From the IMG/VR virus record IMGVR_UViG_3300032332_001787, positions 128,001-192,000 of that record: DNA of 64,000 nucleotides; one strand, given 5' to 3'. The notes beneath the pieces are model-generated. The model did not search any database. It saw only the letters and a program-made list of their open reading frames with translations, and had not been told where the DNA came from. Source of the stretch: a virus. Lineage: Duplodnaviria > Caudoviricetes. The first letter of the stretch is position 1. Every line of letters begins with the position of its first letter. Below, in pieces: positions 16,091-46,366 of the stretch. Position numbers and translations under genes: made by a program.

Positions 16091-17127
16091 TAACATATTT
16101 TAGAAGCTCATCATACAATACTCACTCAATGTGTGAGCAACAATATTTTCTTGAATATGTTTTAGGCTATCGAGGTCCGTCAGGACAAAAAGCCGATAAA
16201 GGAACCATAGTTCATAAGGTATTAGAAATCCTTGCAGTTATTAAAAAAGCTCAACAGGATAGTATTGATACTATAGATGACGATGTTATTGGCAAATTAG
16301 AAGTATCTAATTACAGTTTAAATACAATAATCGAAAAAGTATATAAGCATTATACAGAAGCAAATTCTCATCACAAGTGGGCCTTAAAAGACTACAAAGA
16401 CTGTCATGCTTGGGTATATAAAGCTATTGAATTTAATAATGGCATGTTTGATCCTAGAAACAGAAATATTTTATGTCCAGAACAACACTTTGATTTTGAA
16501 ATAAAAAAACCGTGGGCTCAATATTCATATGACACTCCAGAAGGGAAACTAGAAGGATATCTTGCTTTAAAAGGCACTATTGACTTGATCACACTTGTTA
16601 ACGATACTACTATAGAGGTTATTGACTGGAAAACTGGCAAAAGACTAGACTGGGCAACTGGTCAGGAAAAGACTTTGGAAAAACTCCAGAATGACCCTCA
16701 GCTTAGAATATATTATTATGCTATTACTCATTTGTATCCTCATATTAAGAATGTAATTTTTTCAATATACTTTATCAATGACGGTGGTCCATTTTCAATA
16801 TGTTTTGACAAATCTGATTTAGCAAAAACAGAGGACATGTTGCGTCAAAAATTTGAAATAGTCAAAAAAACACAGAAACCAAGATTAAATAAAAGTTGGA
16901 TGTGTACTAAGCTATGTCATTTTGGTAAAACCACTTTTGAGAATACTCACATAGAAGCTCAAGAAGAATACAGAGAAAACCAGACTTGTTCAATTGGTTC
17001 CAAGATGACAAAATGTGAACAAATTAAGCATGATATAAGTCTTTATGGAATGAAGCAAGTTGTAGAAGAATATAAGAATCGCAATCACTCTTTTGGAAAA
17101 TATAAAGCTCCAGGAACTACAGAATGA
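16084..17127 (+). CDS. PD-(D/E)XK RecB-family exonuclease
   Basis: KGTIDLI, IDWKTG and QLRIYY motifs. The frame is open upstream of the track's ATG (16129) and adds ITYFRSSSYNTHS before the conserved Cys, so an ATT (16084) or ATA (16087) start is proposed. Confidence 0.8.
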   Translation: MIITYFRSSSYNTHSMCEQQYFLEYVLGYRGPSGQKADKGTIVHKVLEILAVIKKAQQDSIDTIDDDVIGKLEVSNYSLNTIIEKVYKHYTEANSHHKWALKDYKDCHAWVYKAIEFNNGMFDPRNRNILCPEQHFDFEIKKPWAQYSYDTPEGKLEGYLALKGTIDLITLVNDTTIEVIDWKTGKRLDWATGQEKTLEKLQNDPQLRIYYYAITHLYPHIKNVIFSIYFINDGGPFSICFDKSDLAKTEDMLRQKFEIVKKTQKPRLNKSWMCTKLCHFGKTTFENTHIEAQEEYRENQTCSIGSKMTKCEQIKHDISLYGMKQVVEEYKNRNHSFGKYKAPGTTE

Positions 17128-18998
17128 GTTATTCAGTTTTACATTGTCATAGCATGATGTCTCTGTTGGACGGACTATCCAAGTTTGATGATCTTGCATC
17201 AAGATGTAAGGAAATAGGAGCAACAGCGTGTGCTATAACAGATCATGGCAATATTGCGGGTGCGGTTAAATTTTATCAGTCAATGAAAAAAGCTGGCATT
17301 AAACCCATCCTTGGTTGTGAATTGTATATATGCGAACAAAGTCCTACCATCAAAGAAGTTAGCAATAAAAAACTTAGCCATTTTTTGGTTTTGGCTAAAA
17401 ACCTCAAAGGCTGGAAAAATTTAATCCAGCTAGTTTCCTTGTCCAACAGCCCAGACTTTTATTATCACAAGCCACGCCTCGACCTAGAGACTCTGGCGAG
17501 ATTCTGTGACGGCAACCTCATAGGAATATGCGGCCACCTTGGATCACTATTGGCCGATAAGATAATGGATGACAATAATGAATTAATTAATGATCATATT
17601 AATATAGGAATAGAAACTGCGGAAAAGCTCAAATCAATATTTGGTAATGATAATATATTTCTGGAAGCACAATTAATAGATAAAGAAAATCTACCTATTC
17701 AAGAGTTTTTAACTAATGCAATTAGAGAGATTGGTCAAAGGACTAATATTAAGATCATAGCTACTCCTGATGCTCATTATGCCAGAAAAGAGGATGCTGT
17801 TGATCAAAGAATTTTACTATGCAATAATCTTAAAATGACATTACCAGATATTAGTCGTAAAATTAGCAATAACGAAGATATCCCTATGGGCTGTTTCTTT
17901 TTGTCCGACAATTATCATATTCCTTCATTTGAAGAACTACAAAACATTCATCCCCAAGAAGAATTAGATAATACCAATTATGTCGCAGACCTTATAGAAG
18001 ACTACAACATTCTTGCTAAACCCAGATTGCCACCCTTTGCTTGTCCAGCAGGATATGATCCAGACACATATCTTAGACAGTTATGTAGAGATGGGTGGAA
18101 ACAAAAAATTGCAAAAAAAATACCAGAAGAAGAACAGAATAAATATGTTGAAAGAATCAAATATGAACTAGAAATCCTACAGGGTGCAGGGTTGTCAAGT
18201 TATTTCTTGATTGTGCAAGATATCGTGAACTATGTTAGGAACCAAGGGTGGCTTCCGGGTCCGGGCAGAGGAAGTGCGGCGGGATGTTTAGTGTCGTACT
18301 TAATTAGTATTACTAGTATTGATCCTATAAAATATGATCTTTTATTTGAGAGATTTTATAATCAAGGCCGACAAGAAAAAGGACACGTTTCATTACCAGA
18401 TATTGATGTTGACGTTCCAATTAATAAAAGAGAAGAAGTGATCTCATACATTAAAAATAAATATGGTGCGGACAAGGTTTCTCAAATGGTGACATTTAAC
18501 ACTATGAAAGGCCGTGGAGCTATTAAGGACGTATTAAGAGTGTATGGGAATATATCATTTGATGAGATGAATAATATCACCAAAAGTATTCCGGATGAAG
18601 CAAAAATTGCCGACGAGCTTCAAGAAATGAAAGAAGAAACAGGAGAAGCTTCTATTATTAGGTGGTCTTTAGAAAATAATGTAGAAAAACTCAAAGAATG
18701 GTGCTATATTGACGAAAATAACCAATTACAAGGACCACTTGCCAAAAGATTTGAACAGGCTATAAGATTAGAAGGTACGAAAACCAATCAGTCAAAACAT
18801 GCCGCTGGCATAGCTATAAGTGCTGAGCCACTACAAGAAATTTGCCCCATGGTTTATGACTCAAAAAATAATCAACTAATTGCTGGTATGGAAATGCAAG
18901 ACCTAGAAGCTTTGGGGGTAATTAAATTTGATATTCTTGGTATCGCTATGTTAGATAAAATTATGACTATTCAAGATATACTAGAAAAAGGAGAATAA
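17124..18998 (+). CDS. dnaE: DNA polymerase III alpha, N-terminal half (PHP plus palm/thumb)
   Basis: LHCHS..SLLDG, AITDHGN, GCELY, DAHY, GRGSAAG, LPDIDVD, KHAAG and KFDILG. It ends 18 residues after KFDILG. Confidence 0.95.
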   Translation: MSYSVLHCHSMMSLLDGLSKFDDLASRCKEIGATACAITDHGNIAGAVKFYQSMKKAGIKPILGCELYICEQSPTIKEVSNKKLSHFLVLAKNLKGWKNLIQLVSLSNSPDFYYHKPRLDLETLARFCDGNLIGICGHLGSLLADKIMDDNNELINDHINIGIETAEKLKSIFGNDNIFLEAQLIDKENLPIQEFLTNAIREIGQRTNIKIIATPDAHYARKEDAVDQRILLCNNLKMTLPDISRKISNNEDIPMGCFFLSDNYHIPSFEELQNIHPQEELDNTNYVADLIEDYNILAKPRLPPFACPAGYDPDTYLRQLCRDGWKQKIAKKIPEEEQNKYVERIKYELEILQGAGLSSYFLIVQDIVNYVRNQGWLPGPGRGSAAGCLVSYLISITSIDPIKYDLLFERFYNQGRQEKGHVSLPDIDVDVPINKREEVISYIKNKYGADKVSQMVTFNTMKGRGAIKDVLRVYGNISFDEMNNITKSIPDEAKIADELQEMKEETGEASIIRWSLENNVEKLKEWCYIDENNQLQGPLAKRFEQAIRLEGTKTNQSKHAAGIAISAEPLQEICPMVYDSKNNQLIAGMEMQDLEALGVIKFDILGIAMLDKIMTIQDILEKGE

Positions 18999-18999
18999 A

Positions 19000-19203
19000 A
19001 TGATAAAATTTATGGATTTGGCGGCCGGGTTGAAGTTCACAGCTAGTCTTAATGGAGGCCCTATTACTGAATATATTAAAATTCAAGAAGAACGAATAAG
19101 CTGCTGTTCGGTACTAAATGCTCAGACAACAGGAGCTAATGGTCAAAAAGTACAGTTTCTTCCATTAGCTGAAGTAGAAGAAGTTAAAGAGGAAAACAAA
19201 TAG
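19000..19203 (+). CDS. Small hypothetical protein between the dnaE halves
   Basis: 67-aa ORF with 1-nt and 2-nt gaps to its neighbours and a GGAG upstream. Confidence 0.65.
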   Translation: MIKFMDLAAGLKFTASLNGGPITEYIKIQEERISCCSVLNAQTTGANGQKVQFLPLAEVEEVKEENK

Positions 19204-19205
19204 TA

Positions 19206-19892
19206 ATGATTAATTATAACAAAATTTGTGTTTTTGATTTTGAAACTGACGGATCGGACCCAAAAGTCTGTAGTCCTGTTCAAATTGCTGCAGTTATTAT
19301 AGATCCTATTAAGTTAGAGATAGTTCCAAATTCTGAATTTAATATTTTCTTTAAACCAGAAGTTTTAGCTAATGACGAAAACTATAATTATACAACAGAC
19401 ATATTGGATTTTCATGCTAAGGTTAGAGGATCTTCCAAAGAAGATATCCTGAAAGAGTGGAAAGCTTATCCTGCACAGGAACAATCTTGGAGACTATTCA
19501 TAGACTACCTGTCTATGCATCACACAAGATCAAGCAAGAAAAGCCAGTTTAGTGCTCCGATAGCTGCTGGTTACAATATTAATAGGTTCGATCTTACTAT
19601 CATTGATAGATTAAGTCGAAAATATGGCAATGTAAATAAGGAAGATAGGTCTGATGTATTTTTCCCTAGAGATGTCGTTGATATTATGAATCTTATTTTT
19701 TATTGGTTTGAACATAATAATGATTTAAAAAACTACACTTTAGATTCTATCAGAGATTATCTTGGTATTAGTAAAGAAGGTGCTCATGATGCTCTAAAAG
19801 ACGTAAAAGATTGTGCAGAAATACTAACTAGGTTTATGAGACTGCATAGAAACTTGGGACAGAAAGTTAAATTCAAAGGTTCTTTTTGCTGA
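19206..19892 (+). CDS. DEDDh 3'-5' exonuclease (DnaQ/epsilon-like)
   Basis: ExoI FDFETDG, ExoII GYNINRFD and ExoIII HDALKD. Confidence 0.9.
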   Translation: MINYNKICVFDFETDGSDPKVCSPVQIAAVIIDPIKLEIVPNSEFNIFFKPEVLANDENYNYTTDILDFHAKVRGSSKEDILKEWKAYPAQEQSWRLFIDYLSMHHTRSSKKSQFSAPIAAGYNINRFDLTIIDRLSRKYGNVNKEDRSDVFFPRDVVDIMNLIFYWFEHNNDLKNYTLDSIRDYLGISKEGAHDALKDVKDCAEILTRFMRLHRNLGQKVKFKGSFC

Positions 19893-19899
19893 AGATAAA

Positions 19900-21528
19900 A
19901 TGACTAAAAAATTTCAATATAGTTGTGGTTGTTCTTTTGATATTATCGGTGAAGATAATCATAAAAACCTACAAATAAAATTTGAACCAAAAATTGAAGA
20001 TATTAACTTAGACTGCCAAAAAACTTGGGATCTTATTTCTGATGGAAATACCAAAGGATGCTTCCAATTGGAGTCTAGACTCGGCAAGTCTATGGCAAAA
20101 AAGTTAAAACCCCAGAACATAGAGCAGTTATCTGCTTTAATTAGCGTTTTACGGCCAGGATGTTTGGAAGCGGTTAGAGATGGAAAAACTGTTTCTAATC
20201 ATTATATAGATAAGAAAAATGGTTTGGAGTCCGTAGATTATTATCATCCTTGTTTAGAGCCTGTTCTCAAAACAACATATGGAGAAATGATCTATCAAGA
20301 GCAAGCAATGGAAATTGCAAAAACCGTTGCTGGTTTTGATCTTCAAGAAGCAGACATGTTAAGAAAAGCTATTGGAAAAAAGAAACCAGAAGAAATGGCC
20401 AAGATTAAGATTAAATTTCTAGCCGGATCTGCAAAGAGCGGCATGGTTTCTACACAACAAGCAGAGGAAATTTTTAGTTGGATTGAAAAATCACAAAGAT
20501 ATTCATTTAATAAATCTCATGCAGTATCTTATGCTGTAAATTGTTATTTGTCCGCATATACAAAAGCACATTTCCCAAAAATATTCTTTGCTGCTTATTT
20601 GAGATTTGCCAAAGACAAAATTGATCCTAAAGCAGAAATAAAAGAGTTAGTTCAAAATTCCAATGAAATGGATGTTGCTGTATCTATACCAGATATTAGA
20701 AATCTTAATAAGTTATTTATTCTCAAAGATGATAAAATATACTTTGGATTAACAGATATAAAAGGATTTGGACAATCTGTTTTTGATAAATTGATATCTA
20801 CTATAGATAGTAAAAAAATTAATTTAGATAGCATGACTTGGCCTGAAATTTTACTACATGTGTTAATAAACCTTAATTCAACATCCGCTAAGGCTTTGAT
20901 ACAGGGTGGTGCTTTATCGTTTATTGGCAAAAGCAGAACAAGTATGTTATTTGAACTTAGTCTTATTTCTGAATTAACAAAAAAAGAATCTGACCATATT
21001 ATTAGTAATATACATCATCACCGTACCATCGGAGATAGCTTACATGATTTATATCATAATGGAAAGTCTAATAAGAATAGAAAAGCTATTATATTAGGAT
21101 TAATTAACAATTATAATAAACCACCATATTCCTTGGAAGACAATCCAGAATGGATATCGGATACTGAAGACTCGGTTTTGGGATGTAGTATTACTTGTTC
21201 TAAAGTAGATATGTATGATATTACTATGACAAATACAACGTGCAAAGACTTTAAAACAACTTTGAATAAAGATAATATTATTTTGTGTGCAGAAATCGAG
21301 AATATCGGCGTCACAAAAACTAAAACTGGGAAAACTCCAGGTTTAGAGATGGCATTTGTTACATTAAGCGATGGAACAGGAGTATTAGATTCCGTTGTAT
21401 TCTTTCCAGAAGCATACAAAACGTATCGCAACACACTATTTCCTGGAAATGTTATTATTGTTAAGGGGAATAAAGCAAAAAATGGCGAATCTTTGATCGT
21501 AGAAAAGACTTATATTCCAAAGACTTGA
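19900..21528 (+). CDS. dnaE: DNA polymerase III alpha, C-terminal half (fingers, HhH, OB)
   Basis: GCFQLES, LRPG, IYQEQ, ADMLRKAIGKKK, YSFNKSHAVSY, HhH GLTDIKGFG and OB-fold MAFVTLSDGTG. Confidence 0.95.
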   Translation: MTKKFQYSCGCSFDIIGEDNHKNLQIKFEPKIEDINLDCQKTWDLISDGNTKGCFQLESRLGKSMAKKLKPQNIEQLSALISVLRPGCLEAVRDGKTVSNHYIDKKNGLESVDYYHPCLEPVLKTTYGEMIYQEQAMEIAKTVAGFDLQEADMLRKAIGKKKPEEMAKIKIKFLAGSAKSGMVSTQQAEEIFSWIEKSQRYSFNKSHAVSYAVNCYLSAYTKAHFPKIFFAAYLRFAKDKIDPKAEIKELVQNSNEMDVAVSIPDIRNLNKLFILKDDKIYFGLTDIKGFGQSVFDKLISTIDSKKINLDSMTWPEILLHVLINLNSTSAKALIQGGALSFIGKSRTSMLFELSLISELTKKESDHIISNIHHHRTIGDSLHDLYHNGKSNKNRKAIILGLINNYNKPPYSLEDNPEWISDTEDSVLGCSITCSKVDMYDITMTNTTCKDFKTTLNKDNIILCAEIENIGVTKTKTGKTPGLEMAFVTLSDGTGVLDSVVFFPEAYKTYRNTLFPGNVIIVKGNKAKNGESLIVEKTYIPKT

Positions 21529-21552
21529 CGCAATCGCACTGGTTTCTATAAT
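21525..21552 (+). promoter_or_regulatory. Sigma70-like promoter upstream of ssb
   Basis: TTGACG (21525-21530), 16-nt spacer, TATAAT (21547-21552). Confidence 0.65.
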
Positions 21553-22004: not shown

Positions 22005-22034
22005 AGGGGGATGAAATACTCCCCCTATATTTTT
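22005..22034 (+). terminator. Intrinsic terminator-like hairpin after ssb
   Basis: AGGGGGA-TGAAATAC-TCCCCCT stem-loop followed by ATATTTTT. Confidence 0.6.
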
Positions 22035-30934: not shown

Positions 30935-31420
30935 TCAGTTATTTATTGGTCCCCACTTATTAGCTGGGCAACTTTGATCTTTATGAGCTAACTTATTCTG
31001 ATGATTAGCTTCGCGAATAACAGTACATCCACAAAGTAAACAAGAATTATTTTGGAAATATTCACAAGTATTACAAATACCTAGCCTGTGTTCTATCTCT
31101 TCTTTAGAGCATAGATTATTTTCATTATTGTGATTAACTTCTCTAGCTACTTGGTCTTTTGTGTCTTGTTGTAACTGATCTAATAATGCCTCAGATATTG
31201 CTTGTTTAGAAGATCCTGCGTGAATCGGGGGAGCAACAGAGTCTCCCGTGTGCGCTTGGTGAATCTTGGAGGATAGATCTTCCATTTTTTTAAAACATAA
31301 TATCTTAGTATCCGGTGACTCTAATCCAACGGTCAAACCACAGTATTTACATTGAAAAAGTGGTTTATTATTGTAAAAAGTATTTAATGGTTGTAAATCA
31401 CAATAAGTAGAATTAATCAT
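30935..31420 (-). CDS. Small Cys-rich protein
   Basis: CKYCG and RLGICNTC..CLLCGC..CPANKW. The ATG at 31420 overlaps the upstream stop and is preferred to 31510. Confidence 0.65.
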   Translation of the reverse strand: MINSTYCDLQPLNTFYNNKPLFQCKYCGLTVGLESPDTKILCFKKMEDLSSKIHQAHTGDSVAPPIHAGSSKQAISEALLDQLQQDTKDQVAREVNHNNENNLCSKEEIEHRLGICNTCEYFQNNSCLLCGCTVIREANHQNKLAHKDQSCPANKWGPINN

Positions 31421-34400
31421 ATTCAATCCTGTTAGCTCGACAACATGCTTGATCATTATCACACTTAGATGATGATCTATTATAGCAATGAGGACCTGTT
31501 TCGCAATCATCTGTTTTATATTTTGATCTTAATGATAAATTATTAGTGTCGCAATGAGAAGAAAACTCATTACATTTAATAGATGTATCTACTCCTTTTA
31601 ATATATCTTGAACATTTTTAGGTCTTCTATAAGAGTATGTGTAAGACGCTGTCAAAACAGTTACTGTTGCTTCTCTGAATTGAGGATCAGTAGTTGTTGC
31701 TCTATATTGGATAGCTGGATAACTAATTGATCCAAAATTAAGCTGACTGCAACTTCCGGGAACAACTCCCTCAATAATATCATTAATATCATATGTATTT
31801 ATATTATTTTTACAAACAGCTATATTCATATAAGCTTGTTTCATATTAGCTTTCCACTCAGACACATACACTCTATTGGCATCATTATTAGAAGTTTCTA
31901 TAGGAAAATGCACACCTATATCGCAACCAACTACCGCTGGTGGTCCTAATCCACTAGTATCTCGATCATAATGAATATTAAAGTAATTGCCTGGAGTACA
32001 TTCACTACCTCCTGTTTTAGTAATACAAGTATGCCACGGGAAAGAATCTGGTGCTGGTTTTCCACATTGGCCATATCCACAATTGCTACTACTCCAACCA
32101 CGACAACTATTAGCATCTGGACATAGTTTACAAATATTACAATATATAGTTTGACAACCACCCAAACTCACCGGGCCATTTTCATTAGGATTCCCCTGTA
32201 ATAAATATCCAAGAACACACGTTCTTGTTTCTGTGATAATATCCCATGGTGGAGATTGGTCGGTCATAACAGCTCTATTTGGCCCAACATCGCAGTAAGA
32301 GCATTCGCTGGTTAAAGAGTCGTTTACAACAAAACTATCATCTGGAACTGTAACTTTTAATTTAGGACAATTATTAATAGTATTATCAAAACATTGTGAT
32401 TTATTAGGTAATGATATAGTAATATTATTATTAGTATAATTTATAGTGCAAATGTGTGTGGAGCAATTTGCCGTGTATGGTAAATTATTATTTATTGTCT
32501 CTATTTCATAAATATAATATCTAGTGGGTTGAGATACTACACAAGAATACCATAAACATTCCTCATTAGCTGTTAAAACTCCAACTGGTCCAGGCATTGC
32601 ATATTCTCCTGTTTTATTACAACTAATATTATCAGAGATAATATCTGGATCTCTTAATTTACCAACTAATTTTCTTTTATGTCCTTTTAAAGTGATACTA
32701 TGTCTAGCATATTCAAAATTATAATCAAAATCACTATATTCATAATTTAATGATTTACAGGCGCATCCATCAATCTTATCAGAGCTTCTACAATACCCAT
32801 AAGAATAATTATCACATTCACAAGAGTCTCCGGTGCTACTTGGAGATGGTGGCCATTCGCTACCAAAAATATTATATCTTTGATTATCGTTCCATGTATT
32901 TTGTGCAGTTAAACTGAAGCATGTGCCACATTCTGATGTAGCGTATCTAGGATTTTTAGAATATCCTATTACATCATCTACTATAGTTCCACTATCGAAA
33001 CTTTCCAATGGACCATAGTTAGTATTTCCAGAATCAAATTGTGGATTTACACTAGCTCCATTCCAATGACAACCTCCTTGAACTCCACGACTCCATCCAT
33101 TAGAACTAAATGTAACTTTTTTAGATCCTATACCCTCACATCCATTTGGAATAGAAATAGGTCCAACACCTCTATTTGTACACTCATCATAAGGCAATGC
33201 ATTTGGAGCACATCCCCCATTATGAGCTATATATACGTCTTTATGACCATATATATACCGAGTATCAGGACAAGGAGCACCTCTTGGATTTGATTCATCT
33301 TGCCAGTATGGAAAACTAGCCTCTGTTCCATTTTGGTCAATAATAATAGTAGCTGATGTAATTTTATTACTCAAATTAATACTTTTTTGAGCTCTTTCTT
33401 TACAATTACCTATCTGAGTGTAAGTTTGATTAGAAGCTGGGGAAAAAATAGAATTAGTAGACACTACCAAAGATTTTGATCTTGTTTGTTCTTCATAGAT
33501 CTGACCAGTAATCGATATTCCATTCATTTCAGCTACAATATTAATTTTTCCATTGTTTCTTTGAATGCTAATAGATATGGCAGTATTCTCAATTTCGACA
33601 GACACTCTTGCTCCAACAGCAGCTTTACCATCTATCGAAATAGATCCATTAATTTGACGCTCCTTTGAAATATCTGCCCCAATATCTAAATCATAGGGTA
33701 TATTTTTATATAAATCTTTAGCTTCTATTTTTGGATCAGAATACTTTATTAAATCTATTAAAGTTATAGGATTTTCTGATTCATCTATTCTTTGTAGATT
33801 AATTTTTTGTTTTTGGCCATAAACTAATCTAAAAAACATTTCATTAGCTAATGAGTCTGTGTTTTTAACTAATGTTGTATGGTCATCTACTATACTAGAA
33901 GTTAAAGTATTTTGGTATTCTTCATTTAATATAGAATATCGATTAAAAGATGGTCTTGGAGTATAGCTTGGATTAGACGATACTGGATAGAGCGGATTGT
34001 CTGGATCTAATTCAAATCTTTGAATATAATGTAATTGATTATTACCAATTGGATTATATAAACCAGCATCATAAGAAAGTATATAAGGAATAGTATTACT
34101 TAAAATACTAATAGGTTTTGTTTTTTCTACAAAGATATCATATTTCCCACTATAATTTGACCAGCCGACAGTATTTATTCCACATAGTCTACTATCGCAA
34201 TTACCAACAGTATCAGTATCACAATAAATAGGATATCTAGCAAAAGGTCTTGTAGTAAAGTTTGTTTTTGTAAAATGATTAAAGTTAAATTTATTAGAAG
34301 AAAATTGAATATTAGTTGATGGAATAGATGGAGTAAAGGTTCTTAAGCAGTTTTGTCCATTAAATAAAGTAGTATGGTTAACTTCTGATAATTGCATAGG

Positions 34401-37400
34401 GACATCATCTATTCTTAAAGTATTACTATAGAATACATCAGAACTAAAAGAGATTGCTGATCTTAACATATTACCAGTATTAAAATTAATCCAAAACTTA
34501 TTAGGAGTAGTTGAGGGATTTATAAAAGAACCCCATTCATGATTTGTTGGAAGATTTGCATGTATGCCACTAATTATAATTGTGCCGGATATGATATTAT
34601 TGTTATTTAAGAAAGAACTAATATTGCTTCTAAAATTATTAGTATTTTCTCCGGGAGCTGGTATAAAATTTATATCCATAAATGGTAAAAAATTATGATG
34701 ATTAAACCAGTCACTATCAATTAATGAGTCATTCAATCCAATATTATATTTTTGATGTATGGTATAATATACTAGTCCTGTTTGAGATATATTTAAGGTT
34801 TGATTATTTGTTTTTAATAAATAATTATATAGTTTATATTTACTATTATTAATAACAATTTTATTAAAATTATTATTGTAAGTACTATTTGGATAATTAT
34901 CTCTTAAATAATTTTTATTATATATATAATTACTTAATTCATTTGTTAATTTTTTATCAAAATCTATCAAGTCAGTCCACTTAGTAGAATAAATCTGATT
35001 ATTTAATAAAGAATCAGATTCTGATTTTAGTGCAGGATTAATATTTTTATATATTATGATTGAATCGATACCTTGGCTTCCTCCTGGTTGATCACTAATT
35101 TTAGTAAAATCTAAATATGCTTCATCGTATTTTAGTTCTTTATCAAAAGTTAAAGCAGTATATGTTCTAATGAATTGATTATTATTTTTATTGCTATTAT
35201 TAGACTTAATAAAATTATTATTTTTATCTACATATTTAATATAGATACTTTTTTCAATAATTTTACATGTATATTTTTCTCGTAAGTTTTTTTTGTTAAT
35301 AACAACAACTTCTTGATCACAAGTTTTTTTACTGTTGTATACATATCCGGCTTTATTATGCAGGCTGTAGTTGATGTGTAGATCGCTAAAGTTAGTATAT
35401 AAATAATTATAATCAGATAGTCTATATGAAGAGTAGTTATTTTTAGATCCACCAATGTATCTCCATCTGGTACCATTGGTCAATACAACATCGGGGTTTT
35501 GTTCTGAAATAAGATCTTGTTCATCTGAACTAAGATTAGTTATGGAGTCAACCGCAGCAACAGTAGCCGTATCTTTTTCTGCGACATAAAAATAAGATCT
35601 AATTCCATCAACTAAAACCTTTTTTATATTGTTAGATTTAGTAAATGATATATGGTATATGGGATAATTATTATTAAAAGCAAAAGTTGAATTACCAGTT
35701 GGATAAAAATTATATACAAAATCAAATTCTATAGGCTTTTTAGGACAAGATGGCAGCCAAGAACCAGGAGATATTGAATGATTTTCTTGTTTTAAATATT
35801 CAAAAAGATATGGTTCTCCTATATATATACTATCTTCATTAATAAATCCAAAAGTATTTGGAACAGCATATTCATACCAGCCGTCTGGTAATTGTAAGTA
35901 TAGTCTTAATTTTTTATGGTTATCAAAATTATTAATTTGTTCTATTACTTTTTTAAATGATTGATTGATATCTCCAATAAAAATACTGCCAGAATTAAAT
36001 GTCTTATCCGATCTAAAGTAGTCTTTATCATAATCTATATAATAGCTATTATCAGTTAAATCATGATTAATAGATGTTTTATTATTAAGGTTTGGATCAC
36101 CGATAATTAAACCACTATTAGGATGAAAGAAACCTTTGGATAATGTTCCCATAGCGGATGGAGTTTTGATAGCAAAATTTAAAATTTGTTTTCTTGGAAT
36201 TCTACTAAATTTAATTGGAACAGAGCTTATTTCATCTCCTCTGCCACCAAATATACTATGTGAATCACAGAAATTACCAACAGGAGGATAAAGAATATAT
36301 TCAGCACCCAATAAACCTGCTAAATATGGGTTCACAAGTTTAATAGATACAGAAGATCCCAAAGATCCTCCTTTGTCTATAAATTTCTTTTTTTGTTGAT
36401 CATATATAGTAATAGAATCATTAAGCTTAACTAAGTTTGTATATCTTTGATATCCCAAATTAGAAGAACTAGTCATTTCACCAGTTTCAAAATCTTCTTG
36501 ACTATTCGTTGGTTTAAATAAATCAACTCCCTCCAATATCTCTGCCCATATATCAGCATGAATAGTATCATAAGATGGTAATGTAGCTGACCATGTTGTT
36601 GCAGCATAGTTATTTAAAGTAATTGTTACAGATTTTTCACAACCGTAAGGATTTAGAGGATCAATTTTTTTTGATACTACAGATAAGTTTGTGCCTATTG
36701 CTGGATGATTAGGTATAGTATTACTGCCTATCATGCTACTTAATTGATCGGATGAAAAACCTCCATATGATTGAATTTTTGGACTATTAACAGTCGAAAG
36801 CCCCGGAGTAAATAATACAGGATCGTTGGTGAAAACTAATGGAGAGTTGCAAGTATAAGGATATTCTGGTATAGTATTCAAACCAAAACACTTGCAGCTA
36901 TCTTTTATAGGAAATGCTCTACAGTTATAAGAATCCGAACTACTACCTCTTAGTTTTTCAATTTTTACATTAAAAATTTTTATACCAACATCTTTAGTTT
37001 CAAAAGTTAATGACAAATTACCTTGAGGCATAGAATTTATACCTCTGACAAATACTGTGGATCCAGAGTTATTAAAAGCACTAGCATAAAATATACCACC
37101 CTGACTATGAAATGCTAGTCTGTCTATATGAGGATTAAAAACAGAAACAGGATATGATCTTTTAAAATATTTGGAGCCATCTAAAACAAATCTACCTAAT
37201 CTGGTTCCAGTAACATTAGCTCCGTCGCTGTTATTTGCTCTAAAAGCATCACGAGCATCACACCAACTCTCGGATCCCTGATATCGATCACAAATTTCTG
37301 TTATATTTATATTAGGTAATTTATAACTACTATCCTCATCACAACGACTACAGTATTGACTTAATGGAGTACTATTGGTAATAATTCTAGGATAATTATT

Positions 37401-39308
37401 TTGCAGCGTGTAGCATCCGCTGCTGTATACATACTCTTTGATTAAGCTATTATTGAGATAAAAACCTGCCATTCTAGCAGATTGATATTTCTCCATAGAA
37501 GACCCGACACATCGTGCTTTATATTTAGTTTTTGTATCGATTTTAGATTCTAAAACCAAAGACCCTAAACTGAATTTTTGATTGTATGCAAAAACTTTAG
37601 AAAATATATTAGCAGAACAGTCTGTTGTGGGAGTACAATTAGTACTATAGAATCTTGTATCCGAGACATTATTAATAACCATATCAAAATCAAGATCAAT
37701 ATAGCATTGAGAATTTAGACTATTGTTAAGAGTGAGTGTGCTTGTTGTATTTGGTTCACACCATAAATATGGTCCATATTTATCTCCTAAAGTATTAATA
37801 AGATCTTTTTTGCTTTTTATAAATCCAAGTCCGGCTATTGATCCAATATTTGAAGTTGACATATCCTTATTAAAACCAGAAATTTGTTTAAAAGAATTAA
37901 TAGTATAGTCATAGTTATTATTTCTCTTTAATAGGTCTATAGTAATTTGATCATATTGTGGAGATGTACACATCAGCGCAGCTAGTTCAAATTTAGCTTT
38001 CATTGACATGTTGGTTTCGTCAAGTTTATCCGCAATATTTATTCTATCATAGATATTTCTAAAATTTTCATATAAATTTGCTGATATATAAACAAAATTA
38101 GATCTATGAGGTATCACTCCAGTAACACTATTTCCTTTTAATAACTTAAGACCAGATGGACAATTCTTTATTTCATCTGTGATATTATCCGATGATGGAG
38201 CAAGCTCTGGGCCTTCGTTGGTGGCATAAAATACATCTCCAGGAGATATATATAAATCAACCCCCTTAATTGGCCGACTATCTATAGCATCTTTATCATA
38301 ATATCTATACCAACATAAAATACCAGAATTATAATTCCATTTCCAATGAGAGCCTATTTTTTCATTTTTTACAAATATATTGTCATATGTGTTTCTAGAA
38401 AAGCCATATGGTGTTTTTTGAAAATTTTCTATAGGTGGTAATAGGTCGTTAATGTTTTTTGAAACTAGTGTCTGATCTGACTCGCCAATAAGACCAGAGA
38501 ACATAGGATAATATGGATTCAGTCCTGAATATGAAGGGTTTAACTGCGTTAAAATAAAATTACCACATGTTTTACTAACTTGTAAAGATTTATTATATGC
38601 TTTTTTATGCTGATCACTAGTATCATATTGTGAAGTTATAATATCATATGGAATTTCTCCGATACTTTCTTTAAGTTTCCAATCAATCATGATTGGAGGA
38701 GAAGATGAAAAACTACTAAGACTATTATTTGGAAAACTAATAAAATGTTGGAATCCTAAACCAGGATTATTTGTAGATGGAAATTGATATAGGTGTTTAA
38801 AATCATAAAATTTGGTTAAACTAATTTGATTGAGAGTTGGTATCTTTGGTAGATAATCATCTTTCTTCATCATTGTATCACAAGCGCCGTTACAACAATT
38901 AGAATTAATATATTGAGATTGTAATTGTCCATAAATATTAATTACTTGACGAACATTATTATCAGTATCTTTAAGTTGCCAACTTTTAGAATATGACATT
39001 GTTGGATCACAATAATTACAAATTAAATTATTATCTGTTTCTAGAACATCATAATTATATGGTAATGGAGCACAATTAACTGGATCAAAAGACGATGAAA
39101 CAGAGCTACCAGCCTGTGAAAGAATATCTGCTTTAGTTAGGGTAGAATCAGTTGATTTAATAATTATTGGTAGCCAAATACCACTAGTTTCAACATTAAA
39201 AGATGGTACTAGTCTGCTTAATCTGCTTATGTCTATAGAAGCATTAGTATAATTAGCATCAAATAATAATGGTCTATTATATATATTACAACAACTCATT
39301 ATTAGCAC
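31413..39308 (-). CDS. Giant Cys-rich hypothetical protein, putative virion/tail component
   Basis: Uninterrupted 2631-aa ORF in the tail-type block, rich in N/S/T with a strongly Cys-rich C-terminal quarter. Confidence 0.7.
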   Translation of the reverse strand: MLIMSCCNIYNRPLLFDANYTNASIDISRLSRLVPSFNVETSGIWLPIIIKSTDSTLTKADILSQAGSSVSSSFDPVNCAPLPYNYDVLETDNNLICNYCDPTMSYSKSWQLKDTDNNVRQVINIYGQLQSQYINSNCCNGACDTMMKKDDYLPKIPTLNQISLTKFYDFKHLYQFPSTNNPGLGFQHFISFPNNSLSSFSSSPPIMIDWKLKESIGEIPYDIITSQYDTSDQHKKAYNKSLQVSKTCGNFILTQLNPSYSGLNPYYPMFSGLIGESDQTLVSKNINDLLPPIENFQKTPYGFSRNTYDNIFVKNEKIGSHWKWNYNSGILCWYRYYDKDAIDSRPIKGVDLYISPGDVFYATNEGPELAPSSDNITDEIKNCPSGLKLLKGNSVTGVIPHRSNFVYISANLYENFRNIYDRINIADKLDETNMSMKAKFELAALMCTSPQYDQITIDLLKRNNNYDYTINSFKQISGFNKDMSTSNIGSIAGLGFIKSKKDLINTLGDKYGPYLWCEPNTTSTLTLNNSLNSQCYIDLDFDMVINNVSDTRFYSTNCTPTTDCSANIFSKVFAYNQKFSLGSLVLESKIDTKTKYKARCVGSSMEKYQSARMAGFYLNNSLIKEYVYSSGCYTLQNNYPRIITNSTPLSQYCSRCDEDSSYKLPNINITEICDRYQGSESWCDARDAFRANNSDGANVTGTRLGRFVLDGSKYFKRSYPVSVFNPHIDRLAFHSQGGIFYASAFNNSGSTVFVRGINSMPQGNLSLTFETKDVGIKIFNVKIEKLRGSSSDSYNCRAFPIKDSCKCFGLNTIPEYPYTCNSPLVFTNDPVLFTPGLSTVNSPKIQSYGGFSSDQLSSMIGSNTIPNHPAIGTNLSVVSKKIDPLNPYGCEKSVTITLNNYAATTWSATLPSYDTIHADIWAEILEGVDLFKPTNSQEDFETGEMTSSSNLGYQRYTNLVKLNDSITIYDQQKKKFIDKGGSLGSSVSIKLVNPYLAGLLGAEYILYPPVGNFCDSHSIFGGRGDEISSVPIKFSRIPRKQILNFAIKTPSAMGTLSKGFFHPNSGLIIGDPNLNNKTSINHDLTDNSYYIDYDKDYFRSDKTFNSGSIFIGDINQSFKKVIEQINNFDNHKKLRLYLQLPDGWYEYAVPNTFGFINEDSIYIGEPYLFEYLKQENHSISPGSWLPSCPKKPIEFDFVYNFYPTGNSTFAFNNNYPIYHISFTKSNNIKKVLVDGIRSYFYVAEKDTATVAAVDSITNLSSDEQDLISEQNPDVVLTNGTRWRYIGGSKNNYSSYRLSDYNYLYTNFSDLHINYSLHNKAGYVYNSKKTCDQEVVVINKKNLREKYTCKIIEKSIYIKYVDKNNNFIKSNNSNKNNNQFIRTYTALTFDKELKYDEAYLDFTKISDQPGGSQGIDSIIIYKNINPALKSESDSLLNNQIYSTKWTDLIDFDKKLTNELSNYIYNKNYLRDNYPNSTYNNNFNKIVINNSKYKLYNYLLKTNNQTLNISQTGLVYYTIHQKYNIGLNDSLIDSDWFNHHNFLPFMDINFIPAPGENTNNFRSNISSFLNNNNIISGTIIISGIHANLPTNHEWGSFINPSTTPNKFWINFNTGNMLRSAISFSSDVFYSNTLRIDDVPMQLSEVNHTTLFNGQNCLRTFTPSIPSTNIQFSSNKFNFNHFTKTNFTTRPFARYPIYCDTDTVGNCDSRLCGINTVGWSNYSGKYDIFVEKTKPISILSNTIPYILSYDAGLYNPIGNNQLHYIQRFELDPDNPLYPVSSNPSYTPRPSFNRYSILNEEYQNTLTSSIVDDHTTLVKNTDSLANEMFFRLVYGQKQKINLQRIDESENPITLIDLIKYSDPKIEAKDLYKNIPYDLDIGADISKERQINGSISIDGKAAVGARVSVEIENTAISISIQRNNGKINIVAEMNGISITGQIYEEQTRSKSLVVSTNSIFSPASNQTYTQIGNCKERAQKSINLSNKITSATIIIDQNGTEASFPYWQDESNPRGAPCPDTRYIYGHKDVYIAHNGGCAPNALPYDECTNRGVGPISIPNGCEGIGSKKVTFSSNGWSRGVQGGCHWNGASVNPQFDSGNTNYGPLESFDSGTIVDDVIGYSKNPRYATSECGTCFSLTAQNTWNDNQRYNIFGSEWPPSPSSTGDSCECDNYSYGYCRSSDKIDGCACKSLNYEYSDFDYNFEYARHSITLKGHKRKLVGKLRDPDIISDNISCNKTGEYAMPGPVGVLTANEECLWYSCVVSQPTRYYIYEIETINNNLPYTANCSTHICTINYTNNNITISLPNKSQCFDNTINNCPKLKVTVPDDSFVVNDSLTSECSYCDVGPNRAVMTDQSPPWDIITETRTCVLGYLLQGNPNENGPVSLGGCQTIYCNICKLCPDANSCRGWSSSNCGYGQCGKPAPDSFPWHTCITKTGGSECTPGNYFNIHYDRDTSGLGPPAVVGCDIGVHFPIETSNNDANRVYVSEWKANMKQAYMNIAVCKNNINTYDINDIIEGVVPGSCSQLNFGSISYPAIQYRATTTDPQFREATVTVLTASYTYSYRRPKNVQDILKGVDTSIKCNEFSSHCDTNNLSLRSKYKTDDCETGPHCYNRSSSKCDNDQACCRANRIEYD

Positions 39309-42300
39309 CTATAAGATTGAAGCACCCATCCACTGCCTATGAATGTAAAGATACCCATATCCCCCTGAGAGACATTAAAACTTAATGGATTGTTATATGT
39401 TGTTGTATATCTCTCATCTGTAGTTCCTGTACTATAAACCTTATAGATATCAACTGTTGTTGAGCCATTAATAATTCCAGAAGTAATATATGGGCGATTA
39501 TATATTGGTTCATAAAAACCATTTTTACTATCATATTTACAATAAATTTGCGCACCTCGTGGTGCTGGATTAATACCGAGGGTATCCTTGACAAAAACTA
39601 ATCTTCTTAAGCCATCTGGTAAAATTTCATTAGATGCAATATCTCCAATAATTTCTCCTCTAGATGGTTGATTACCTATAAGATCAGTTTCTATAATAAT
39701 CCATACAGGCTTATAATTAGATCCTACTGTCCAAACTCCAGCAGCAGCGTCCCATCTTAGATCTACCGGCCCAACTGGCCATGTTCCTGGTAATTGTCCC
39801 CAACCTTTATAGAAAGAATTTTCTTTATAGGGTTTAGTCCATGTTCCATCAGGTTTTTGCGTTTGATTCTTATACAGAATATTATTATTGGAGTCTTTAA
39901 CTACGGCACCGTTTTGTATTTTTGGCTCTCCAGAAGCATTTGGTACAGGATAGCCCTCTAGATCATAGCCCCAACCATGTACCATTAAGGGGCCTCGTAA
40001 ACCAAAAAATCTCATATTATTTGCTGGAGTAATAGGCATTTGTGCAACACCATTGCTAGCACAATAATCAACATAGTTAAGGTCATATGCTGCAAAATTT
40101 TTAATAGGATCGGCACCGAATGAAGGTTTCAAAGAGTTTGCACCCTCTGGAACACTTAATCCAAAGCCAACTAAGTCTATGCTGTGAACAGTAGTATCTC
40201 CGGTTTGTCTATTTTGAACGCACCCAAATTCCCCACTAGATAGTAAAATAGGATTTAAGGTTGCATAATTAATAATTGGATTGCCACTTATGCCGCTCAA
40301 AGCATTTAAACTATTTCTAGAAATAATAGTACGATCATCTCCACTAGCTAAAACATATGGTGGAAACATTTCTTTTGGTGAGGCACTAATAAATTTTCTT
40401 TTATCTTTATCTTCCTGTGTTTCACAAAATGGACAAGGAGTAATAATAGTTGTAGTTTTTGTATTAATAATATCAGCTAATGTTGATGGAAGAGCATTTC
40501 CTCTAACATTTAATTTATCATAGCTATAGCTGTTTGTTCCTTTACATGATGGACATCCACTTCGAGGATATTTTGTAATACTATATGTAGAACCATAAGG
40601 AGTTGGATAAAAAGATATTGGAGACAGTATTCCATCCAAGCTCATGAAAGATTTTCTATCATAATCATCTTTGAATTCTCTTGGTAATTCTTGAATATCC
40701 TGTACAGCAACATTGGTAAGATATCTTAACATATCTTTAGAATTATAGTCAGCGCCAAGAGAGTACGGCTTTTGAGACCATTCTGGACCAAAACCCAAAG
40801 AAGCAACAGCATCAGTGATAGAACTATTTTGATTTAGTTGTGGGTATGCTCCACCTGCTAATACCTCAAAGGGACTCCATCTCAATGGTTTGGGACTATC
40901 TGCAGAGCCGATACTATTTAAAGCAGCAAATGTATTTTGTACTGGGCCGTTTATTGCATTTATTCTATTATTAATTTCTTTTTTGCGTTTATAGGTCTCC
41001 ATACCTAGTTGTTTAATTCTGTCTGCATTTTCTTTATTAAAGAAACCTATTTTTCTAGTATAAGTTCTCATATTATATGTTGTTGAAATACCACCTTCGC
41101 TAACGCTAATGGTTAGATTACTAACAATAGGTCCAGCTGTGGCATCAGCAGTAAGAGAAAGTATACTGCCCATACTGTATGCATTACCATCATTACCAGT
41201 AAGAACCACCCCAGGTACAGTAATAGATCCTTGTTCTGTTACTTGTTGATAGCTGATATCGTCTCTAATCCTATTCATAACAGCAGCATCTAGGGGATCC
41301 ATACCTCCGTAATTCCATGGAACAAGCTCATCTTGTTCTTCTACTCTGGATCCACCCACTAAATTATTTACAAAATTATCTACATTACTATAGCCAGGAA
41401 AAATTTGATCACCAACTAAACCAGGATGATTAATCCATGGTCCATATGTAGCTAAATTAAATTGTATGGGAATTGCAGCAAAAGCTGGACAAGCTGCTTT
41501 TTTCATTATCGACACATTTTCAGCGGAACTATTAATGGACAAGCTTGGTGGACTAGACTGCACCAACCTACCTGCTCCAGCAATACCCCAATGAAATAAT
41601 AGTGTATTTATTCCTATATTTTGTCTAATATTATTTCCTGCTCCAGCTCCGTTGGGTCTGGTTGGTCTTCTGCTCATGTCTGGATTGAGTCTGCAAATAG
41701 CATCGTGCAAAGTAACAAAAAATAAAGAATCATCAGCATCATTTTTACCGCCGCCTATTGAAATCTCAGCCGGTAATTTCACAATAACTCTTGGTTGATT
41801 ATCTATATAAATTATTTGTTCTTCAACATCTGACTTAACATACATCTTATATACCCAATTGTCTGGTACAGATACTCCGTGAGCAGTCTTAATTCCTAAT
41901 GCTGCTCCAGCAAAATTACCTCCAGATAATCCTGCTCTAGCTTGTGCAGGACTTTGGTATGGTATGTAAACATAATTTTCCGAGGGAAGAGAATGTTCAA
42001 GAGGAAAATAGAAATACTCTCCTTGTCCCAATCCTGCGCTAGCTCTTGAGGTTCTGAATCGAATAGAATTTAAAGCAAAAGGATTATTCCTAATAGGATA
42101 TAAATTTTGCATAGCCCACATATCTCTGGTTGCTAATTCTCCACAGGCATTAAATCCTAAGATAGGTTTAATTTTACCATCATCTTCTGTGAATAAATCT
42201 GCTGTTGTTGAACCAATAACAATTGTATCGTCAATAACATTACCATATTCTTCCCAGGCTCCATCTTTAGATACCTGCCAATCAGTATATATTTTACCAG

Positions 42301-44692
42301 ATCCTGATAAAGAAACATTTCCAAATGTAATTTTTAAATCTCCTTCCCTATACCATCTCATTTTAGGAGTTCTGACCATATATTGTTTACCATAATACTC
42401 CTTAGCTATATTATCAAAAAAATGATGAATTTTTTGTAAATCAGCATATAATAATTTCATATATGGTTGAGCATTTTCCATTTTGATAGCATACGGTCTA
42501 GGATCCTGAGACTGAGTCGCTGAAGATTTTTTAACAGAATTCCAGTTTACAACTCCTAGTCCAGCAAGGAAATTTTCTTTATTAGCAAAAGCTCCGTATG
42601 TTCTTTTGAATGCAACATAGATTAAATCAGCAATATCTGTATTAAAAATATTATCAAAACAATAACTAAACCATGCTTCAAATCCAGATCCTGCTGCTCT
42701 TATTTCATTTTCTAATACAACAAATTCCCCATTAGACATATATGGTTGAGATAATATTGTAGTAATATCATTAGTTCTAAATTGTATTTGTAATTGACCT
42801 GTCGCCTGATCCCAAAATACTTTTCTTGGCTCATTCATATTAACAGCATCGGTTTGATCTGTTTGTAAATGGCCGTGTGTTCCAAAATATGGACAAATTA
42901 AATCATTATATAACACATAACTAGTTCTTGTTAAAGGACTAGCGTTTGTTGGTTGTGTAGGTACGGTTTCTGTAGGATAATAATTACCTAATGGAATATC
43001 AAATGAATTACCAAAAGTAACTTGCGTATTAAAGTCGGCAGCGGTATTAATTTGACCAACTGCTGATCCTCCATCAGTAGATAATTGAGAATATCTGGTG
43101 CTCCCCTCATTTGGTACTCGTATATTATTAGCAAAAGAAGAATCTATAGGCATGAATGATCCAGTTCCATTATTAGAATATGGATCAAAAACCATACTAT
43201 TTTGTTTTATTGCTAAATGTATGGACTGAACTTGTAATAGTCTTTTTTGTTTACCTCCTATATACATAGCTCTAACATTTTTATCAGTAAATTCTTGTCC
43301 ATAACTAAAATTACTAACTTTTAAACCTTGATTTACTAGATTTTCTACAATAGTTTTAATAACCTCTTTTTGAGGCTGTATTCTTTTACTAACTGTTTTT
43401 ATTTTAATAATACCAGAATAGTTGGCATTAGTAGAAGGTTCAAATGACACATAAAAATCATAACCAGAACCCTCACAGATATCAGTAATAAATTGTAATA
43501 TATTAATAGTAGCAGATGGTATATATAGATCATTAGGTGGAATAGGAACTTCGCTTATATCAAGATAAAATAAACTTCTATTGATACCATCAATAGCAGC
43601 AACGCTCTTACAAATACCGCAATCTTCAAGAGTAACCGAGGTTCCAGTTGAAGATGTTACTATGTTCTGATCTGTAGTACAATAAGTCCCATCTGTTTTT
43701 ACTATATGTTTTCCAACTATAAATCCATATGGAGAATATTGATTCTTAGTACCAGTAGTTAAATCTTTAAGAGCATTATAAATCTGTAGAGCTGATACTC
43801 CATTAGATGTTTTTCCGGCCGTGCCAAATCCCATACTTTCTAGATAGCCATAAACATTAAATACATTAGGCAAATTACCGTGTTTAATATTTGCAGAATA
43901 AGCTCCTGTTGTTAAACTAGGAACAGCAATGTCGTCATTAATACTAGTAGAAATTGATCCTGTGTAATTATCAATTATAAGCCAAGAGCCAGAAAGTAAA
44001 CTAGCATAACTCCTAATCTCTACATCATATAATGGAGTTCCTCCTTGTCCACCCATAGCTTTCCATCCGTGAATGTATCCTCCCATTGCTATGCCATCAG
44101 CAAATTTAAAGTAAACAGGAGTTCCTATAATATCATATCCGTCTCTGATAATATCTCCTTGATCATCTTTCTTTGGCAAGCCTAGGAAGCCAATATCAGG
44201 ATCTAGCCATAATTTGCTGCTTGATCCATCTGATTTATATAATATCTTACCACTATCAATATCTGTTGCAGATTGTGCTAGTTCAGCAGTAATGTCTTTG
44301 TGTAAATTTTTATATTGGTCTACAGATGCTGAATTTTCATCCGCTGATACTGTATATTTCGTATTTATACTACCATTGCTGGTGCTGTTTTCAGTATAAT
44401 ACTGTGGATTGCTTAATTCTAATGCAGATGACCTGAGAGCAGGGTCATTAAATGAATTAGATATTTTTTTATCATTATTTGTGGATGTAACTCTTGAATT
44501 TAATGCTCCAAACTGATTAGCTAAAGGATGATAAGACTTATCATCTACTAAACTAACTGTTAAAGTGCTTTGTTCAGCACCCCATCCTAAACTCATATTA
44601 AAATTAGTAATACTACATCCCAAAAATAAAGTTTGTTGATATGGTCCAACTTCTCTATATGAACCACCACAAGTTTTAACTGTTCTTGGCAT
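39302..44692 (-). CDS. Large putative tail tip/baseplate hub protein
   Basis: 1796-aa ORF downstream of the tape-measure-like gene, with an AGGA RBS. Function is inferred from position. Confidence 0.55.
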   Translation of the reverse strand: MPRTVKTCGGSYREVGPYQQTLFLGCSITNFNMSLGWGAEQSTLTVSLVDDKSYHPLANQFGALNSRVTSTNNDKKISNSFNDPALRSSALELSNPQYYTENSTSNGSINTKYTVSADENSASVDQYKNLHKDITAELAQSATDIDSGKILYKSDGSSSKLWLDPDIGFLGLPKKDDQGDIIRDGYDIIGTPVYFKFADGIAMGGYIHGWKAMGGQGGTPLYDVEIRSYASLLSGSWLIIDNYTGSISTSINDDIAVPSLTTGAYSANIKHGNLPNVFNVYGYLESMGFGTAGKTSNGVSALQIYNALKDLTTGTKNQYSPYGFIVGKHIVKTDGTYCTTDQNIVTSSTGTSVTLEDCGICKSVAAIDGINRSLFYLDISEVPIPPNDLYIPSATINILQFITDICEGSGYDFYVSFEPSTNANYSGIIKIKTVSKRIQPQKEVIKTIVENLVNQGLKVSNFSYGQEFTDKNVRAMYIGGKQKRLLQVQSIHLAIKQNSMVFDPYSNNGTGSFMPIDSSFANNIRVPNEGSTRYSQLSTDGGSAVGQINTAADFNTQVTFGNSFDIPLGNYYPTETVPTQPTNASPLTRTSYVLYNDLICPYFGTHGHLQTDQTDAVNMNEPRKVFWDQATGQLQIQFRTNDITTILSQPYMSNGEFVVLENEIRAAGSGFEAWFSYCFDNIFNTDIADLIYVAFKRTYGAFANKENFLAGLGVVNWNSVKKSSATQSQDPRPYAIKMENAQPYMKLLYADLQKIHHFFDNIAKEYYGKQYMVRTPKMRWYREGDLKITFGNVSLSGSGKIYTDWQVSKDGAWEEYGNVIDDTIVIGSTTADLFTEDDGKIKPILGFNACGELATRDMWAMQNLYPIRNNPFALNSIRFRTSRASAGLGQGEYFYFPLEHSLPSENYVYIPYQSPAQARAGLSGGNFAGAALGIKTAHGVSVPDNWVYKMYVKSDVEEQIIYIDNQPRVIVKLPAEISIGGGKNDADDSLFFVTLHDAICRLNPDMSRRPTRPNGAGAGNNIRQNIGINTLLFHWGIAGAGRLVQSSPPSLSINSSAENVSIMKKAACPAFAAIPIQFNLATYGPWINHPGLVGDQIFPGYSNVDNFVNNLVGGSRVEEQDELVPWNYGGMDPLDAAVMNRIRDDISYQQVTEQGSITVPGVVLTGNDGNAYSMGSILSLTADATAGPIVSNLTISVSEGGISTTYNMRTYTRKIGFFNKENADRIKQLGMETYKRKKEINNRINAINGPVQNTFAALNSIGSADSPKPLRWSPFEVLAGGAYPQLNQNSSITDAVASLGFGPEWSQKPYSLGADYNSKDMLRYLTNVAVQDIQELPREFKDDYDRKSFMSLDGILSPISFYPTPYGSTYSITKYPRSGCPSCKGTNSYSYDKLNVRGNALPSTLADIINTKTTTIITPCPFCETQEDKDKRKFISASPKEMFPPYVLASGDDRTIISRNSLNALSGISGNPIINYATLNPILLSSGEFGCVQNRQTGDTTVHSIDLVGFGLSVPEGANSLKPSFGADPIKNFAAYDLNYVDYCASNGVAQMPITPANNMRFFGLRGPLMVHGWGYDLEGYPVPNASGEPKIQNGAVVKDSNNNILYKNQTQKPDGTWTKPYKENSFYKGWGQLPGTWPVGPVDLRWDAAAGVWTVGSNYKPVWIIIETDLIGNQPSRGEIIGDIASNEILPDGLRRLVFVKDTLGINPAPRGAQIYCKYDSKNGFYEPIYNRPYITSGIINGSTTVDIYKVYSTGTTDERYTTTYNNPLSFNVSQGDMGIFTFIGSGWVLQSYRC

Positions 44693-44710
44693 AATTATTA
44701 GTCCTAAATA

Positions 44711-46330: not shown

Positions 46331-46366
46331 ATTTTTAATCCTAAATATTGTCTTAAATAAGATAAT

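Follow-up and report, generated by a model that had tools for sequence, protein, structure and literature searches.

We analysed a stretch of viral DNA of 64,000 nucleotides (the window), which corresponds to bases 128001-192000 of the virus record IMGVR_UViG_3300032332_001787 (230,097 bp, completeness rating of 100%). Its replication operon encodes DnaE, the alpha subunit of DNA polymerase III (Pol III), in two genes called here dnaE-N and dnaE-C. The operon runs in the order recA, dnaB, primase, dNMP kinase, PD-(D/E)XK nuclease, dnaE-N, an open reading frame (ORF) of 67 amino acids (aa), a DEDDh exonuclease, dnaE-C and SSB, with glycosyltransferase-like genes downstream of SSB. A preliminary description had placed DnaE in two genes lying 901 nt apart, and the ORFs at 17124-18998 and 19900-21528 bear this out, the gap holding the 67-aa ORF and a 228-aa ORF. 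The features of the locus are as follows, in window positions (dN and dS, nonsynonymous and synonymous substitution rates; pLDDT, predicted local distance difference test).

17124..18998, + strand: dnaE-N, 624 aa (Pfam PHP 6-183 and DNA_pol3_alpha 316-606; alignments to Taq, Mtb and E. coli alpha; conservation in 95 homologues)
19000..19203, + strand: 67-aa ORF, SH3/Tudor-like small beta barrel (after dnaE-N in close loci; dN<dS; model pLDDT 91)
19206..19892, + strand: 228-aa DEDDh 3'-5' exonuclease, epsilon-like proofreader by its motifs (Pfam RNase_T, E 1e-12; PHROG 192, E 1.5e-24)
19900..21528, + strand: dnaE-C, 542 aa (Pfam finger 29-180, HHH_6 259-348, OB 476-525)
19900..20016, + strand: N-terminal leader region of dnaE-C, residues 1-39, with Cys9, Cys11 and Cys39 (covariation; predicted beta strands)
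20569..20571, + strand: His224 of dnaE-C (KAHFP), putative fourth zinc ligand (covariation with the CxC leader; alignment to E. coli H777)

The operon genes abut or overlap, and a Shine-Dalgarno-like AGGAG lies within the final codons of dnaE-N, an arrangement that fits coupled translation.

Domain content, break point and absence of splicing elements

The dnaE-N product comprises PHP, palm and thumb with the catalytic residues D426 and D428 (PDIDVD) and D603 (KFDILG), and closes with the first finger helix (607-624). The three Asp are invariant among homologues, and the Pfam domains agree with the preliminary description, which had attributed PHP and all three Asp to this half. The dnaE-C product contains the fingers, HhH and OB, its chain stopping after OB, and the DnaE-type order PHP, Pol3 core, HhH, OB is thus recovered by Pfam across the two genes. 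Finger residues such as E. coli R709 bind the incoming nucleotide; R155 of dnaE-C aligns to it. The metal-site positions of PHP are H7, H9, D16, H41, E66, H86, H138, D216 and H218; eight canonical positions are kept, and His138 stands where bacteria usually have Cys. Since the canonical positions are kept, PHP and DEDDh proofreading may coexist in this replicase, two activities that are not mutually exclusive (PMC3919608).

In dnaE-N, 21 residues follow D603, and homologous N chains end 23-33 residues past the K of KFD. A leader of 31 residues opens dnaE-C, after which the alignment to E. coli alpha resumes at residue 586, dnaE-N having ended at about 576; the distance from KFD to FQLE is 44 to 56 residues in single-chain proteins. 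In Pfam terms, the NTPase match stops at N606 and dnaE-C matches the finger model only from model position 19 onwards, so the 18 missing positions correspond to the helix that closes dnaE-N. These alignments put the cut about 18 residues into the fingers, in the loop that follows the first finger helix. The split itself stands as first described, and Pfam and the E. coli alignment refine its placement, which is not exactly at the palm/fingers border.

No intein or Hint match was obtained in the four proteins (E<=0.1) or in the whole genome, although a genuine split intein, that of the relative L030, was recovered with this library, and the absence of an intein had been correctly noted. In cyanobacteria the dnaE break lies before FNKSH. 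As already recognised, the break is not at that place here, and YSFNKSH is intact at C201-207. A search for Rfam introns at the seam returned nothing but a chance match to U6atac (E 0.75). The lack of a clamp-binding motif, also pointed out earlier, extends to homologues of each of the four proteins, as a QxxLF-type motif was absent from 87 C, 95 N, 91 exonuclease and 82 small-ORF sequences. The genome gave no match to PolA, PolB (no PF00136) or a second dnaE, and none to the beta clamp (DnaN) and delta-prime families. The DnaE pair is the only DNA polymerase detected in this genome rated 100% complete.

By its motifs, the 228-aa protein is a DEDDh epsilon-like proofreader. It matches PHROG 192 'DNA polymerase exonuclease subunit', and DFETDG, RFD and H-D-A-L-K-D, which supply the DEDDh residues, are conserved. 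The inserted genes had been noticed in the preliminary description, which missed this function. The 67-aa ORF is kept in the near clade with invariant Cys35-Cys36. A fold search with its model gave SH3-like/Tudor barrels as best matches (Z 5.0-5.3), which are generic and name no family, and an Atlas search gave viral clusters without names. No such gene was seen beside the distant split or single-chain relatives examined, and it is thus not needed for the split as such. When a complex of N296-624, C1-250 and two Zn was predicted with the 67-aa protein as partner, the score for this partner was 0.00, a value that speaks neither for nor against an association, and it did not cover the N-C pair. 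An accessory role of the 67-aa protein in replication is a guess.

Spread of the split and the leader of dnaE-C

A search of related phage genomes for the same breakpoint, as suggested in the preliminary description, showed it at the same seam in 80/80 viral loci found with dnaE-C (61-96% identity), with the small ORF and the exonuclease between the halves in nearly all of them. Likewise, among 60 loci found with dnaE-N, every locus on a long enough contig was split. In a search of 1.84 billion cluster representatives (50%-identity clusters), about 140 of the best 150 matches were C proteins without an N part, and five carried N. The contig context was checked for four of the stand-alone C clusters: ten unrelated genes (7.9 kb) lie between the halves in L146, six genes (2.7 kb) in L147, and a 77-aa gene with the exonuclease in L208, while in L145 the exonuclease is directly upstream of dnaE-C. 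The earlier statement that two genes were inserted at the break is thus true locally but not generally, as distant relatives carry quite different genes there.

The spacer measures 0.8-4.5 kb in close loci and 0.8 to 7.9 kb overall, and dnaE-C occurs in all three frames relative to dnaE-N (33/56/46 loci). For close pairs, dN/dS is about 0.01-0.08 for both dnaE-N and dnaE-C; dN is far below dS for the exonuclease and below dS for the 67-aa ORF. Close loci are therefore split with both halves under purifying selection, rather than intact beside a decaying pair. A spacer that varies in length, frame and content, together with purifying selection, argues strongly against decay, an artefact, bypassing or a cis-splicing intron at the seam.

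The phage family with the split DnaE is large, uncultured and aquatic. The closest matches among cultured phages have 31-36% identity; dnaE is a single gene in phages Ronan and MTATph1 and in three pieces in WH1. Matches in GTDB at 61-68% come from four contigs of metagenome-assembled genomes with an identical phage gene order, which are probably binned phage DNA. A marine sub-clade with shortened PHP contains both split and single-chain forms (L208:5033-6625; L144:8001-11159; P0007, P0013, P0016), and PHP metal ligands are degenerate in P0007. In one contig (L017:3205-4933) dnaE-N has a frameshift, probably an assembly error since the near-identical L018 and L019 are intact.

Other interruptions were observed in dnaE-N of relatives. 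In L030:4050-7126, L049 and L134 a true fractured gene is found at GRGS/AAG, with split-intein halves around a free-standing endonuclease, meaning that DnaE is encoded by three genes in those phages. In L152:3216-4360, dnaE-N is broken by about 1.1 kb directly after PDIDV, possibly by an intron. In addition, 13/90 distinct dnaE-N 5' ends have, after the PHP His-x-His-Ser codons, an insert of 6-11 nt that starts with TAG or TAA and always ends in CT. These stop-containing inserts lie in the first 40 nt of the gene (L002-L007, L036, L049, L065, L067, L077, L092, L097, L105, L106, L109). The genes are otherwise intact, ribosomal bypass or re-initiation is possible, and the window copy has none.

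The leader of dnaE-C had been noted in the preliminary description, its probable zinc-site character being missed. A CxC leader (Cys9-x-Cys11) is present in 129/155 stand-alone C proteins, and every one of these has Cys at position 39 and His at position 224 (both 129/129). Without the leader, in leaderless and single-chain phage proteins, Cys39 is found in 12/54, the residue being mostly Asp, and His224 in 34/55; position 39 is Asp in 15/15 bacterial rows. The leader-bearing set has 26 columns with at least 97% conservation; four of them, 9, 11, 39 and 224, disappear or lose their conservation when the leader is lacking, and no others do so. The four putative ligands C9, C11, C39 and H224 are gained and lost jointly. 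The Fisher value for this covariation (4e-13) overstates the case, since it is inflated by sequence kinship, but the leader is absent from several separate lineages in the C-half tree. Cys39 aligns to E. coli D593 and His224 to E. coli H777, two residues that reportedly share one middle-finger sub-domain. AlphaFold predicts the leader as a beta hairpin (strands 4-6, 12-19 and 23-26; pLDDT 77-86). Among N-half sequences no Cys or His of dnaE-N tracks the leader; a zinc ligand supplied by the N half was rejected for this reason, and the site most likely lies inside C, stabilising the new terminus. Altogether, this covariation makes it likely that a Cys3His zinc site (C9, C11, C39, H224) caps the new N-terminus of dnaE-C.

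Phylogeny and a proposed two-subunit model of the replicase

The phage family also has members with a single-chain DnaE and the same order of genes; where their exonuclease gene was located, it lay close by but at another place. With bacteria as the root, the C-half trees have single-chain P0038 branching first, followed by leader-bearing split proteins, and two clades with single-chain proteins (100/100 each) are nested inside split lineages. A single clade of all split forms was rejected on the C half by the approximately unbiased (AU) test (p-AU 0.032 under LG+G4 and under a mixture model). The N-half tree joins five single-chain proteins to the window's clade (100/99) and keeps split L146 and L147 outside this group (p-AU 0.009 in a test that left out L208). 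Cys39 is kept in seven single-chain proteins. The trees were built from subsampled rows, and recombination is possible. The simplest history would comprise a single early fission, accompanied by acquisition of the leader, and at least two later re-fusions. On these trees re-fusion appears fairly likely; L208 may be a re-split form.

We propose the following model. Both genes would be translated separately from one tight replication operon and would assemble non-covalently into one Pol III alpha. Each half would need the other for activity, since N contributes the metal-binding Asp and C the fingers, HhH and OB. Docking would use the native palm-finger surface, with the N helix 607-624 packing into C and completing the finger base. 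The new N-terminus of C would form a beta hairpin held by a Cys3His zinc within C, replacing the lost covalent linker as stabiliser, and the DEDDh protein would proofread in trans. Fission would have occurred once, early in the phage family, with re-fusion at least twice. That the replicase is a non-covalent heterodimer of dnaE-N and dnaE-C, already put forward in the preliminary description, is highly probable and remains the best reading given the purifying selection, the variable spacer and the lack of another detected polymerase. The explanation as a whole (heterodimer, zinc cap, proofreading in trans, fission and re-fusion) we consider highly probable. The chances are about even for the broader picture, in which an intein-free DnaE heterodimer is dominant and ancient in a very large family, zinc-capped, repeatedly re-fused and copies 200-kb genomes without a recognisable clamp motif.

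Some points weigh against this interpretation. Truncated gene calls could account for some of the stand-alone C clusters. For the zinc site the evidence is covariation between sequences that are themselves related, and 26 split proteins lack the leader, which is thus not required and which some lineages do without. Resolution is poor along the backbone of the C-half tree, one run of which ended with an unsettled bootstrap, and the root rests on distant bacterial rows and on P0038, a long-branch phage protein.

The two halves might instead be joined covalently, through unrecognised splicing of RNA or protein or through ribosomal bypassing across the spacer. Inteins and split inteins are abundant at other sites in this family, the 6-11 nt stop-containing inserts at the dnaE-N 5' end of some relatives hint at recoding, and the dnaE-C leader has conserved Cys. 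Yet the seam has neither a Hint match nor an Rfam intron, the spacer varies freely in length, frame and content, and the N tail and C leader are both conserved as protein; moreover, a His 185 residues distant varies together with the Cys pattern, which some split lineages have lost outright. Covalent joining is therefore highly unlikely. If the enzyme is a heterodimer, the leader Cys, alone or together with the Cys-Cys of the 67-aa protein, could form an inter-subunit metal or disulfide bridge, in keeping with the position of the 67-aa gene directly after dnaE-N in the near clade, its invariant Cys35-Cys36 and the several invariant Cys of dnaE-N. We find such a bridge improbable, since four covarying ligands are already available within C, the N-half Cys are equally conserved in leaderless and single-chain relatives, and no 67-aa gene was found next to distant split forms in which the leader is retained. 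As for an assembly artefact or a decaying pseudogene pair, no supporting point was found; the split is conserved in over 100 loci and some 140 protein clusters, selection is strongly purifying and no other polymerase was detected, which leaves this explanation a negligible probability.

A different history would do without re-fusion: the single-chain forms would be ancestral and independent cuts would have fallen repeatedly in the same flexible loop. The earliest-branching P0038 is single-chain, as this history expects, and the leaderless split form L208 has single-chain P0007 as its sister (55% identity), meaning that repeated change of state at the seam does occur. However, many lineages, the deepest split branch among them, would each have had to evolve the CxC...C...H leader on their own, an objection softened by possible spread of the leader through recombination, and independent cuts leave Cys39 in single-chain proteins unexplained. 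We therefore regard a history without re-fusion as unlikely and favour one early fission followed by re-fusions.

Comparison with known systems and neighbouring features

The closest functional parallel is found in family B, in the bicistronic gp43 of Aeromonas and Acinetobacter T4-like phages and the split PolB of Methanobacterium thermoautotrophicum (PMC3061061). These are also replicative polymerases made from two separately translated genes with no splicing element, gp43 being split in the fingers; the DNA between the gp43 parts varies from 2 bp to 3 kb, and relatives include intact and split forms, as here. Like gp43A/B, dnaE-N/C consists of two conserved ORFs with a variable spacer and no splicing element. 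In contrast, family B has an unrelated fold, and the account drawn on here mentions no zinc cap, while the present enzyme belongs to family C and is cut at the finger start. An intein-free two-gene polymerase is also known in family A, in T7-like cyanophages (PMC12695635). Within family C, Iyer et al. (2021, PMC7824862) predicted that group 2.2 jumbo phages encode a 'minimal' Pol III alpha in two pieces, again stand-alone proteins that would reassemble. That enzyme is a catalytic core with no other Pol III domains and stands alongside a family B polymerase, whereas here DnaE is full-length (PHP to OB) and the sole polymerase detected, its seam is different and one chain holds the three Asp.

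Cyanobacterial DnaE is likewise encoded by two genes, whose products are joined by a trans-splicing intein, and its break was called single and irreversible (Wu 1998; Caspi 2003, as cited in PMC2677866). The present system differs by the lack of IntN/IntC halves, the intact YSFNKSH and the probable re-fusions. Among the fractured genes of environmental phages is a dnaE whose parts are separated by a nuclease gene; in these genes split inteins occur along with a homing endonuclease (Dassa et al. 2009, PMC2677866). Here the spacer nuclease is a DEDDh exonuclease and neither a split intein nor a homing endonuclease is present. Bacterial DnaE1 is one chain with a C-terminal domain, and 99% of these proteins have a clamp motif (Timinskas et al., PMC3919608). 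The pair shares with DnaE1 and epsilon the domain order PHP-Pol3-HhH-OB, a separate DEDDh exonuclease and 25-35% identity, but is made of two chains, lacks the clamp motif and ends after OB. The two-gene DnaE probably works like bicistronic gp43 but belongs to none of the compared systems. No description of this DnaE seam was found in the literature, where coverage of subscription journals was thin.

The seam is a natural, tolerated cut site in a bacterial-type replicase, at which palm and finger functions can be tested on separate chains, and it would allow split-enzyme tools without inteins. It also offers a well-sampled gene fission with a new stabilising structure and an apparent reversal, contrary to the idea that dnaE breakage is irreversible. 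The halves are prone to mis-annotation as fragments, and a family C enzyme without a clamp motif raises the question of its processivity.

Around the locus, a promoter scan found no excess over shuffled sequences, and the top-scoring site was 3' of dnaE-C. A near-consensus sigma-70-type promoter (11/12) lies at 21525-21552, where dnaE-C ends and upstream of SSB, and SSB is followed by a hairpin resembling a terminator at 22005-22026. In relatives, the spacer cargo includes a DUF1559 prepilin-like gene and others (L048:5593-6576, L056:5806-6879). The DUF1559 family presumably points to Planctomycetota, and its presence in the L048 spacer hints at such a host; the window's genome gave no DUF1559 match, though the control for this search gave none either. 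Further along the window, 50748-63698 on the minus strand, continuing beyond the window, is the end of a 5862-aa ORF, of which a scanned part of 1199 aa had no Pfam match. It is adjoined by ORFs of 1451, 1796 and 2631 aa at 31413-50722, and all of these are probably virion proteins.

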